Shown: positions 49,698 to 52,406 of the stretch, in pieces
Layout of the letters: the number at the start of each line of letters is the position of its first letter
How positions within the stretch are numbered: the first letter of the stretch is position 1
Sequence record: NC_054934.1
DNA: 64,000 nucleotides
DNA from: Escherichia phage teqskov
Reading direction: 5' to 3' (one strand)
Made by a program: the position numbers and the translations under genes
Notes under the pieces: generated by a model
Seen by the model: the letters and a program-made list of their open reading frames with translations, nothing else
What the model was told of the DNA's origin: nothing
Databases searched by the model: none

Positions 49698-50209
49698 ATA
49701 TTTGTTTAGGTACTACAATTCCACAGGGTTACGTAATTGATGTCACTACCTGGGAAAATGATGGTGACAACTATAAAACTAAAACACTGTTTGGCGTAGA
49801 AGAGCATGAAATCTTACAATTCCAATATCTTTTAAAGAAGTTTAAAAGCAGACATTCTAGTACTAAAGCTGAACGTTATTGTGGTAATGGCTTGTTCAGC
49901 GAGCAATCGCTTTTTATTTATGAATACTTGGTTGAAGGACTGTTCTCAGAACAACTTTATCCAGAATTCATTAAAAAGGTCTTTGATATAGAAGTTGACC
50001 TTGGTAATAAATCCGAAGAAGACGAAGAACGCATATTTGACTTATTCTTTGTGAATGGTAATAAAGTGCTTGAAGGACTTATTAATATTTTAGGTAATGC
50101 TTCTGAGTATTATGATTATGATTTTTTGCGTGTAGTTGAGAGTGTTAAATACTCTTATATAGAAGAAGAAATTGTTTTGCCGACCGTTAAAATGTTTAAT
50201 TTGCTTTAA
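49694..50209 (+). CDS. hypothetical protein (171 aa)
   Basis: ATGA overlap with previous ORF. Confidence 0.5.
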   Translation: MNICLGTTIPQGYVIDVTTWENDGDNYKTKTLFGVEEHEILQFQYLLKKFKSRHSSTKAERYCGNGLFSEQSLFIYEYLVEGLFSEQLYPEFIKKVFDIEVDLGNKSEEDEERIFDLFFVNGNKVLEGLINILGNASEYYDYDFLRVVESVKYSYIEEEIVLPTVKMFNLL

Positions 50210-50295
50210 GAATTATTTGTTATTATTAACTCATACCGCACTGATTAATACCCTCTATCATCAAGGGTTCTTGTTTGAGAGCCTTTGTTAATAAT

Positions 50296-50368
50296 TGGGA
50301 ATTAGCCAAGTTGGTAAGGCATAGCACTTTGACTGCTAGATGCAAAGGTTCGAGTCCTTTATTCCCAG
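50296..50368 (+). tRNA. tRNA-Gln (anticodon TTG)
   Basis: cloverleaf folded by hand: acceptor TGGGAAT/ATTCCCA, anticodon stem TAGCA/TGCTA, loop CTTTGAC, T-loop TTCGAGT. Confidence 0.85.
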
Positions 50369-50369
50369 C

Positions 50370-50456
50370 GCGAGAATGGTCAAATTGGTAAAGGCACAGC
50401 ACTTAAAATGCTGCGGAATGATTTCCTTGTGGGTTCGAGTCCCACTTCTCGCACCA
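50370..50456 (+). tRNA. tRNA-Leu (anticodon TAA), long variable arm, encoded CCA
   Basis: acceptor GCGAGAA/TTCTCGC; anticodon stem CAGCA/TGCTG, loop CTTAAAA. Confidence 0.85.
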
Positions 50457-50461
50457 AATTT

Positions 50462-50536
<75 letters not shown>

Positions 50537-50545
50537 TTTAATTTA

Positions 50546-50619
50546 CTCCGTGTAGCTCAGTTTGGTAGAGCGTCTGCTTTGGGAGCAGAATGTCGTAGGT
50601 TCAAATCCTGCCGCGGAGA
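50546..50619 (+). tRNA. tRNA-Pro (anticodon TGG)
   Basis: acceptor CTCCGTG/CGCGGAG (one G-T pair); anticodon stem TCTGC/GCAGA, loop TTTGGGA; T-loop TTCAAAT. Confidence 0.85.
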
Positions 50620-50621
50620 CT

Positions 50622-50711
50622 GGAGGCGTGGCAGAGTGGTTTAATGCACCGGTCTTGAAAACCGGCAGTCGCTCCGGCGACTCATAGGTTCAAATCCTAT
50701 CGCCTCCGCCA
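50622..50711 (+). tRNA. tRNA-Ser (anticodon TGA), long variable arm, encoded CCA
   Basis: acceptor GGAGGCG/CGCCTCC; anticodon stem CCGGT/ACCGG, loop CTTGAAA. Confidence 0.85.
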
Positions 50712-50716
50712 GTTTT

Positions 50717-50792
50717 GCTGATTTAGCTCAGTAGGTAGAGCAGTTGACTGTTAATCAATTGGTCCATGGTTCGAATCCATGCATGTCCGCCA
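50717..50792 (+). tRNA. aberrant tRNA-like gene (Asn-type anticodon GTT) with non-pairing acceptor stem; probable chimeric or pseudo-tRNA
   Basis: D-arm, anticodon arm (GTTGA-CTGTTAA-TCAAT) and T-arm (CATGG-TTCGAAT-CCATG) fold, but 5' acceptor GCTGATT cannot pair with 3' CATGTCC (3 of 7 pairs); ends in GCCA. Confidence 0.5.
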
Positions 50793-50918
50793 AACTTGTG
50801 ACAGTTGTCACATTAATATCTACTTGACGCGATTATAGGGGTTGAACTGATCACACTTCTCTTAATTTCGTGTGAAGACATCTTGATTGTTGGAGTAGGT
50901 ATTGCTGTGAACTAATTA

Positions 50919-50995
50919 CGGGGTGTAACTCAATTGTATAGAGTAGCGGTCCTCTAAACCGCAGGTTAAAGGTTAGAATCCTTTCACCCTGACCA
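50919..50995 (+). tRNA. tRNA-Arg (anticodon TCT), encoded CCA
   Basis: acceptor CGGGGTG/CACCCTG (one G-T pair); anticodon stem GCGGT/ACCGC, loop CCTCTAA; T-loop TTAGAAT. Confidence 0.85.
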
Positions 50996-51016
50996 AATTA
51001 TTGAGAGAATAATATT

Positions 51017-51571
51017 ATGAGAAGTGATGTAGACTGGGACCAAATTAATTTGGCTATAAAAGCTGGATTAATATACCATGGTAATTTTGAAATAACACAA
51101 GAACTAATTGAAAATGTTGCTTTTCTTAAAATAACAGATAAGAAAAAATTCTTTTCTATGACTGAAGCCAAACGCTTGTCAAAATGGAAAGTATTTTGTA
51201 GGACTGCCGCCCTAAATCTTTTGAAATTTAAAGATGAATTTGATATAGAAAAAAGCTATCGACAGGCTTTCGTATACATAATGGTAGATACTACAAATCC
51301 TAATTATTATAAAATAGGAAGAAGTATAGAACCTGATGTTAGAGTTATAACAGCAAATACATTTTCACCGTTTAAAAGTTTTAAAATAGTATCATTTAGA
51401 TATTCCCAGGATGCAGTAGAACTTGAAAAATATATGCACAGCATTTATAATCAGGACCATATAAATGGTGAATGGTTTTTCTTTCATGACATAAGTTCCA
51501 TAGTTAAAAAATTAGATACTAAATCTACACAATTTGAAATACCAAATGAGAAACCGGGTCGCTACCGGTAA
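51017..51571 (+). CDS. T5orf172 / GIY-YIG-like domain protein (184 aa)
   Basis: C-terminal half has VYIMVD...YYKIGRS...R......ELEKYMHSIY...GEWF, matching the T5orf172 (GIY-YIG superfamily) pattern; lies directly after tRNA-Arg. Confidence 0.55.
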   Translation: MRSDVDWDQINLAIKAGLIYHGNFEITQELIENVAFLKITDKKKFFSMTEAKRLSKWKVFCRTAALNLLKFKDEFDIEKSYRQAFVYIMVDTTNPNYYKIGRSIEPDVRVITANTFSPFKSFKIVSFRYSQDAVELEKYMHSIYNQDHINGEWFFFHDISSIVKKLDTKSTQFEIPNEKPGRYR

Positions 51572-51589
51572 GTCGTCGGACTGATGTTC

Positions 51590-51859
51590 CCTGAGTAAGG
51601 AATTGCGTTAATAATCTTTGCGTTTATTGATGCCCTCTTACATCACAGCAGAAACGGCGCACCGAATTATCGATTCGAGGAAATATCTTTGCCGTAAGCC
51701 GAGTAGCGTTTTTGACGGAACGTTCGGATATGGTCGAGATATGGCCTTTTAAAAATATTGAGTAGCGTCAACTACTTAATAACCGGGTTCAAGTCCCGGC
51801 GTTTCGTACAAACACTTGCCTTAGCAGGTGGAACCCCGACAAGGTTGCCGCAAGGCTTA
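51590..51859 (+). ncRNA. structured non-coding region, possible small stable RNA(s) as at the distal end of the T4 tRNA cluster
   Basis: no ORF; tRNA-like T-arm hairpin CCGGG-TTCAAGT-CCCGG and several inverted repeats; ends at a rho-independent terminator. Confidence 0.25.
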
Positions 51860-51886
51860 GCCCCGACCGAAAGGTTGGGGCTTTTT
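51860..51886 (+). terminator. rho-independent terminator (CCCCGACC-GAAA-GGTTGGGG then CTTTTT)
   Basis: 8-bp GC-rich stem, GAAA loop, T-run. Confidence 0.7.
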
Positions 51887-51932
51887 AGTATAAATAAGTA
51901 TATTAAAACCACGAATTAAAACAGGAAATAAG

Positions 51933-52406
51933 ATGAAATCATATGCTCAATTTTTAAATGAAGCGGTGTTAAATGAAGCATCTAGCACTGAAATTCAAGC
52001 TGTTGCAAAAGCTGCCATTGCCGCGGGTAAATATTCCTATAAAGATGCTTCCGATGAATCACGATTCCAATTTGCTCGTGATATGAAAGCCGAAGGATTT
52101 ACAGGGAATGCAGTTAGTATGGCTTGGAAAAGTTTAGTTGCTACTGGAGCTGCTTTTGCAAAGGCTTCAGGTAAACCTGCTCCTAAGGCTGATCCTAAAG
52201 CAGCACAAGAAAAAAATATTGCTAAAGGAATTATCTCTAGGTATGAAGCAATTCTTAAAGAACTTTTGATAATCAAAACTGAAGGCCAAAAGCTAGCTCG
52301 TGCTTATAGTTTCAAAGATAACCCACATGTTCACTCTCTTGAATATGTTGAAGACATCCAAAAAATTATTAAAGACCGCATTTGGTCTGCTAAACAAATC
52401 AAATAA
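51933..52406 (+). CDS. CTS-bearing putative internal (head-packaged) protein, 157 aa, Lys/Ala-rich
   Basis: N-terminus MKSYAQFLNEAVLNEA resembles the CTS with L-x-E cleavage motifs; followed by a terminator. Confidence 0.5.
   Translation: MKSYAQFLNEAVLNEASSTEIQAVAKAAIAAGKYSYKDASDESRFQFARDMKAEGFTGNAVSMAWKSLVATGAAFAKASGKPAPKADPKAAQEKNIAKGIISRYEAILKELLIIKTEGQKLARAYSFKDNPHVHSLEYVEDIQKIIKDRIWSAKQIK

Follow-up and report, generated by a model that had tools for sequence, protein, structure and literature searches.

How did a gene with the inner arms of a tRNA come to have acceptor strands that do not pair, and can it still produce a tRNA? The question is raised by a 76-nt element (50717-50792, plus strand) in the tRNA cluster of Escherichia phage teqskov (NC_054934.1); the window, i.e. 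the whole stretch of DNA that was analysed, comprises 64,000 nt. Our preferred explanation, with a probability of about 0.85, is that the element was left behind by a deletion of about 250 bp in the Tequatrovirus tRNA cluster, caused by recombination between the D-arms of the tRNA-Thr and tRNA-Asn genes, and that the resulting hybrid is probably dead.

The tRNA-like element and its surroundings

The window contains a T-even-type tRNA cluster (50296-50995, plus strand) in which the Gln, Leu, Gly, Pro and Ser genes (50296-50711) are followed, beyond the element, by an Arg gene. ARAGORN called these six tRNAs and skipped the element, which starts 5 nt past tRNA-Ser (Table 1). The initial annotation had credited the other six genes with perfect acceptor stems; this holds as far as pairing goes, since all seven pairs form in each of them, but Pro and Arg both include one G-U pair.

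Divided according to the tRNA structure, the letters of the element are GCTGATT TA GCTC AGTAGGTA GAGC A GTTGA CTGTTAA TCAAT TGGTC CATGG TTCGAAT CCATG CATGTCC G CCA. Three of its arms (D, anticodon and T) have the canonical form, and the CCA end is encoded. The anticodon loop has 7 nt, CTGTTAA (50748-50754), of which 50750-50752 are the anticodon GTT; the T-arm has the loop GTTCGAATC, and the D, anticodon and T arms are all paired in the Rfam alignment (model positions 8-63), in agreement with the initial description of the three arms as normal. The acceptor stem had been described as unable to pair, and this was confirmed: when GCTGATT is set against CATGTCC, only three of the seven pairs form (1-72, 5-68 and 6-67), with mismatches at positions 2, 3, 4 and 7. 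The Rfam tRNA model (RF00005) gave a local match only, from 50724 to 50781, covering model positions 8-63 with 51.2 bits; the Thr and Asn genes of an intact relative matched positions 1-71 of the same model with 72.9 and 72.6 bits, respectively. Three things by which a functional tRNA-Asn gene was to be recognised are thus wanting in the element: a 7-bp acceptor stem, a full-length match to the model and a call by the tRNA finder.

A change of boundaries or a sequencing error had been named as the two ways in which a paired stem might be recovered, and neither was borne out. The sequence AATCAGC, which would pair with the 5' strand, was not found within 50000-52000, and no GGRYRYG partner for the 3' strand was found upstream; consequently, the stem can be restored neither by shifting the boundaries nor by assuming one sequencing error. 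The best 7-mers that could be proposed ad hoc as alternative partner strands were scattered chance matches. A sequencing error as the cause of the mispairing was also rejected, because four of seven pairs are affected and each strand is exactly that of a real parental gene (see below). In the minimum free energy (MFE) fold, the orphan 5' strand pairs with the D-arm, the D-stem is destroyed, and the structure is no better than those of shuffled sequences (z = -0.9).

Table 1. Features of the tRNA cluster from tRNA-Ser to tRNA-Arg
Feature	Position	Strand	Remarks
tRNA-Ser(TGA)	50622-50711	+	Last intact gene upstream; ARAGORN, Rfam 62.6 bits, acceptor 7/7, identical to BCH953P2
Spacer GTTTT, 5 nt	50712-50716	+	As in relatives
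tRNA-Thr(TGT)-derived segment	50717-50742	+	Acceptor 5' strand GCTGATT, TA at 8-9, D-arm with Thr-specific extra D-loop A
Crossover interval, 9-nt block GGTAGAGCA	50734-50742	+	Common to Thr and Asn D-arms
Segment unambiguously from tRNA-Asn(GTT)	50743-50792	+	Anticodon arm, variable loop, T-arm, CATGTCC, discriminator G, CCA
SegB recognition core GGTTCGAATCC in hybrid T-arm, retained	50768-50778	+	Conserved core of SegB recognition sequence
3' acceptor strand CATGTCC of hybrid	50782-50788	+	
Spacer, 126 nt, from Asn-derived end to tRNA-Arg	50793-50918	+	100% identical in BCH953P2 and REP2
6-bp hairpin TGTGAC-AGTT-GTCACA at start of 126-nt spacer	50797-50812	+	-7.2 kcal/mol
tRNA-Arg(TCT)	50919-50995	+	First intact gene downstream; ARAGORN, Rfam 60.7 bits, acceptor 7/7 including one G-U

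The hairpin that had been pointed out behind the element is indeed there (Table 1). Since it sits in a spacer that is kept behind the intact Asn gene of relatives, it is unrelated to the rearrangement. It was discarded as a candidate terminator because it has no T-run and was not called as one; neither terminator-like nor promoter-like sites were found in the 126-nt spacer, and no terminator-like site was found from Ser to Arg. As a whole, the spacer is predicted to be more stable than shuffled sequences (-31.9 kcal/mol, z = -2.1); it gave no match to an Rfam family, and the T4 locus lacks a counterpart. The possibility that the element or the spacer (50717-50918) is a homologue of T4 rnaC or rnaD (species 1 and 2) was dismissed, there being no match in this interval.

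Homologues of these two RNAs lie downstream of the cluster, rnaD at 51546-51663 (99% identity, 119 nt) and rnaC at 51670-51808 (98% identity, 139 nt), and a terminator-like hairpin is found past them (51859-51882). Between tRNA-Arg and rnaD lies an ORF of 184 aa (51017-51571) that encodes a MUG113/T5orf172 domain and whose final 26 nt run into the beginning of the rnaD homologue. Arg directly adjoins rnaD in T4 and RB3, with no ORF between them, and the ORF of the window looks like an inserted, possibly mobile gene.

Comparison with intact relatives

A megablast comparison of the cluster with 50,697 phage records gave matches in 583 Tequatrovirus-type records. Of the matches listed, all those with a query coverage of 80% or more consisted of two pieces, the record having about 250 additional bases between them. 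The best matches were to Tequatrovirus BCH953P2 (OZ035785.1) and phage REP2 (OQ174501.1), both with the order Ser-Thr(TGT)-Ile/Met(CAT)-Tyr(GTA)-Asn(GTT)-126-nt spacer-Arg; the tRNA with the CAT anticodon is labelled Ile or Met in the records. Their neighbouring genes and spacers are identical to those of the window, but both carry complete Thr and Asn genes, with Ile(CAT) and Tyr between them, and the ARAGORN count was of ten tRNAs in the relatives (including Thr, CAT, Tyr and Asn) versus six in the window.

The first 26 nt of the element are those of the 5' end of tRNA-Thr (26/26 with BCH953P2; the same 26 nt are present in REP2, RB3, Sf21 and T4), and nucleotides 18 to 76 (50734-50792) are those of tRNA-Asn (59/59 with BCH953P2 and REP2). 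The identity to Thr, followed as far as it goes from the 5' end, and that to Asn, followed likewise from the 3' end, overlap by the 9 nt GGTAGAGCA, and this block therefore marks the crossover interval. Just upstream of it lies another 9-mer common to Thr and Asn, TAGCTCAGT, the two blocks being separated by a 1-nt indel; in the intact cluster, Pro, Thr and Asn all have TAGCTCAGT in their D-arms. A three-way alignment showed one clean gap, from the Thr D-arm to the Asn D-arm, of 262 bp relative to BCH953P2 and of 248 bp relative to REP2. The DNA that is absent comprises the 3' part of Thr, Ile(CAT), Tyr and the 5' part of Asn, and Ser to Arg, both genes included, take up 374 bp in the window (50622-50995) against about 622-636 bp in intact clusters. 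Identity to BCH953P2 is 100% in the flanks, over 454 nt up to the crossover interval and over 267 nt beginning with it; outside the cluster, the identity of the window to this phage is about 96.5-97%.

Judged by its sequence, the element is a Thr-5'/Asn-3' hybrid gene. What was looked for in such a gene was found: two parents from the same cluster, a junction in sequence common to both, and an interval that is lost here while relatives remain intact. The initial proposal of a chimera formed by deletion or recombination through the D-arm is thereby upheld by the alignment with intact relatives. Two of its details had to be amended. It had derived GGACATG as the missing 5' partner of CATGTCC; a partner strand is indeed missing, but the true 5' strand of the parental tRNA-Asn is GGATGTG, with two G-U pairs. 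It had also considered the T4-type tRNA-Thr to be absent, which is correct for an intact gene and incorrect for its first 26 nt, which persist in the hybrid; the parental cluster is of the 10-tRNA T2/REP2 type and not of the T4 type. In both parents the acceptor stem is fully paired (7/7), versus 3/7 in the hybrid.

Some variation was noticed among the relatives themselves. In the BCH953P2 record, 14 extra bases before tRNA-Tyr (around 2090-2115) lead to a run of 12 G, which is possibly a homopolymer sequencing error, and the Tyr gene of this record scored just 34.6 bits on the Rfam tRNA model. The gap between Asn and Arg is 4 nt in RB3, and Sf21 has an extra tRNA-His after Asn. RB1 and RB3, which according to the SegB paper 'lack several tRNA genes', were considered as carriers of a similar deletion and rejected, the RB3 genome having all ten tRNAs intact.

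The hybrid junction was not found elsewhere, be it in the phage records, where among the matches listed every one was in two pieces, or in IMG/VR, GTDB genomes and JGI metagenomes. The reciprocal Asn-5'/Thr-3' junction, expected of a tandem duplication, was not found in IMG/VR and the phage records.

Probable origin of the deletion and predicted fate of the hybrid RNA

The events proposed would start from a cluster of ten tRNAs in the order Gln-Leu-Gly-Pro-Ser-Thr-Ile(CAT)-Tyr-Asn-spacer-Arg. The recombination partners would be the near-identical D-arms of Thr and Asn, TAGCTCAGT(A)GGTAGAGCA, with the exchange taking place within GGTAGAGCA; unequal crossing-over, single-strand annealing after a double-strand break and replication slippage are candidate routes. 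Thr would thus lose its 3' two-thirds and Asn its first 16 nt, and Ile(CAT) and Tyr would disappear entirely; nucleotides 17-25 of Asn are the common block that would hold the exchange. The product would be a 76-nt hybrid made of the Thr 5' acceptor strand and of the body and 3' strand of Asn. We speak of a deletion by parsimony, on the strength of the many intact relatives, since a near-isogenic parent is not known.

The Asn allele matters here. In REP2, BCH953P2 and the window, the Asn D-arm is identical to that of Thr but for one extra base, whereas in the commoner allele of T2, RB3 and Sf21 (GCTCAATGGCAGAGCG) it is not identical. The end points of the deletion therefore coincide with a homology found in the window's lineage only, as expected of a homology-dependent exchange.

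Tequatroviruses thus carry two tRNA-Asn alleles with different D-arms. Their anticodon stems (GTTGA/TCAAT versus ATCGC/GCGAT) and T stems (CATGG/CCATG versus TATAG/CTATC) differ as well, and these differences are fully compensated.

The tRNA locus of these phages is known to be prone to nuclease-driven, UvsX/UvsY-dependent rearrangement (PMC13096335, PMC2330249). The clusters of T4 and T6 contain a gene for the homing endonuclease SegB, which cleaves tRNA genes at their 3' ends; it cuts nine of those in T2L, with a preferred site in tRNA-Asn (PMC2330249). In T6, SegB drives a UvsX/UvsY-dependent amplification of a tRNA-Tyr segment (PMC13096335). SegB brought by a co-infecting T4- or T6-type phage could accordingly have broken the 3' end of Thr, Ile(CAT) or Tyr, after which resection and annealing of the D-arms would have made the hybrid. 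This is a special case of D-arm recombination, with a defined trigger, and we hold it to be unlikely, although it deserves more weight than the other alternatives discussed below. Both the range of its sites in T2L (PMC2330249) and its effect on the T6 locus (PMC13096335) are in favour of such a trigger, as is the position of the Thr, Ile(CAT) and Tyr 3' ends between the two repeats; the window has no segB detectable by tblastn and would hence be a recipient-type genome. However, the preferred type of site, the Asn 3' end, is intact and outside the deleted interval (its core is listed in Table 1, and the motif RAWTSGAAC, taken from PMC13096335, occurs at 50769-50777 on the minus strand), and spontaneous unequal recombination or slippage would explain the junction equally well.

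A more radical alternative is that the phage has an intact 10-tRNA cluster and that the hybrid was created during library preparation or assembly, by template switching while glucosyl-HMC DNA was being amplified, or by a minority variant with the deletion being taken as the consensus. We regard such an artefact as improbable. The junction does lie in a short repeat, a place where polymerases switch template and mis-joins occur, but this repeat (9 nt, or 18/19 nt with the indel) is far below the k-mers of assemblers, so that repeat collapse in assembly is not expected. Although the junction is unique across the collections searched (phage records, IMG/VR, GTDB genomes and JGI metagenomes), the join is perfectly in register and yields a clean hybrid, and the same kind of event is known in biology, as the title of a 1984 paper on T4 hybrid tRNAs indicates. 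The state of the data for this group gives the artefact some credit: the closest record, that of BCH953P2, has the odd G12 run in the same cluster, and glucosyl-HMC DNA of T6 gave limited long reads (PMC13096335).

If the D-arm recombination explanation is retained, what becomes of the hybrid RNA? Its position between genes of the expressed type, with no terminator seen from Ser to Arg, suggests that transcription of the cluster still includes it. The stack formed by the acceptor stem and the T-arm is what RNase P and AsnRS recognise. From the analysis of its stems, the hybrid should be unable to form this stack, on which RNase P, CCA maintenance and AsnRS depend, and it would therefore be neither matured nor charged and would probably be degraded. 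Likewise, no mature product is expected from the unstable predicted fold, in which the orphan strand occupies the D-arm. The hybrid is thus most likely a non-functional scar. As a possible side effect, the loss of RNase P cleavage 5 nt past tRNA-Ser could impair the 3' maturation of that tRNA.

Two ways of granting the hybrid RNA a role were weighed. It might accumulate as an uncharged tRNA-like molecule with a flawless Asn anticodon arm, serving as a decoy for anticodon nucleases or modification enzymes or, through the lost RNase P site, as a block to tRNA-Ser 3' maturation, the deletion being kept because it changes the encounter with tRNA-targeting defences; we find this very improbable. 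Even less credible, if only slightly so, is a functional non-canonical RNA, i.e. a tRNA whose stem is repaired or tolerated, or a stable tRNA-like molecule whose Asn anticodon arm would serve as a decoy for such nucleases or enzymes. It is true that the three inner arms and the CCA end are intact, with no further decay relative to functional genes, but 76 nt at a lineage divergence of about 3% are too few for missing decay to count. Repair is limited to acceptor positions 1-3 in the known 5'-editing systems of mitochondrial type; the hybrid was rejected as a 5'-acceptor-edited tRNA of this kind, and the same argument stands against a repaired stem, since mismatches at positions 2, 3, 4 and 7 go beyond the first three. 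The destruction of the D-stem in an MFE fold that is no stabler than shuffles also speaks against a functional RNA, and the single occurrence of the hybrid in the collections searched gives no sign of conservation or selection. Phage tRNAs are nevertheless known counter-defence elements (PMC13096335).

For the phage, the consequence read from the gene content is that six intact tRNAs are kept and that Thr(TGT), Ile(CAT), Tyr and a functional Asn are lost, after which it would rely on the tRNAs of its host. The tRNA with the CAT anticodon, if it is an Ile tRNA, would read AUA. In the long ORFs of the window, ATA makes up 21% of the Ile codons and ACA 33% of the Thr codons, and the lost tRNAs could matter for the translation of these frequent codons. 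The loss of tRNA-Tyr could matter on hosts with defences that cleave tRNA-Tyr, such as Septu, which T6 counters with a tRNA-Tyr of its own (PMC13096335). For annotation, the cluster should be described as having six working tRNA genes, and not seven or ten, the seventh tRNA-like match being a Thr/Asn hybrid pseudogene.

Relation to known rearrangements of T-even tRNA clusters

The amplification of tRNA-Tyr in T6 resembles the deletion described here in that the same locus is rearranged via short homologies, and it requires phage recombination functions (PMC13096335). The outcome differs: in T6, a tandem duplication is selected by Septu and requires a resident segB (PMC13096335), whereas here tRNA-Tyr is removed by a deletion, in a window without segB.

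T2 (PV958097.1) also has a truncated tRNA-Thr gene after Ser, broken in the D-arm, where a 16-nt stub, GCTGATTTAGCTCGGT, is followed by unrelated DNA. The Thr D-arm has thus been a break point more than once. Unlike that of the window, the T2 stub is not joined to a tRNA body; it precedes an inserted 133-aa ORF (1288-1420 region), for which no Pfam match was found, and Ile/Met(CAT), Tyr and Asn are intact.

The closest parallel is within T4 itself. In 1984, McClain & Foss (Cell 38:225) reportedly described hybrid T4 tRNA genes that arose when different tRNA genes within the cluster recombined; our literature search on hybrid tRNAs and unequal recombination brought up nothing further. The locus and the phage group are the same, and in both cases the 5' part of one gene is joined to the 3' part of another through a conserved stretch, with loss of the intervening genes. 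The parents are different, since those of the window are the Thr and Asn genes of a 10-tRNA cluster of T2/REP2 type and T4 has no Asn gene. The present hybrid was met in a genome sequence and not obtained by laboratory selection, and its acceptor strands are unmatched, so that a stable product is not expected. The kind of event is therefore an ordinary one, known since hybrid T4 tRNA genes were named in 1984; the window adds a new example to it, and a clean natural one, of the way in which short D-arm homologies remodel the tRNA clusters of T-even phages.
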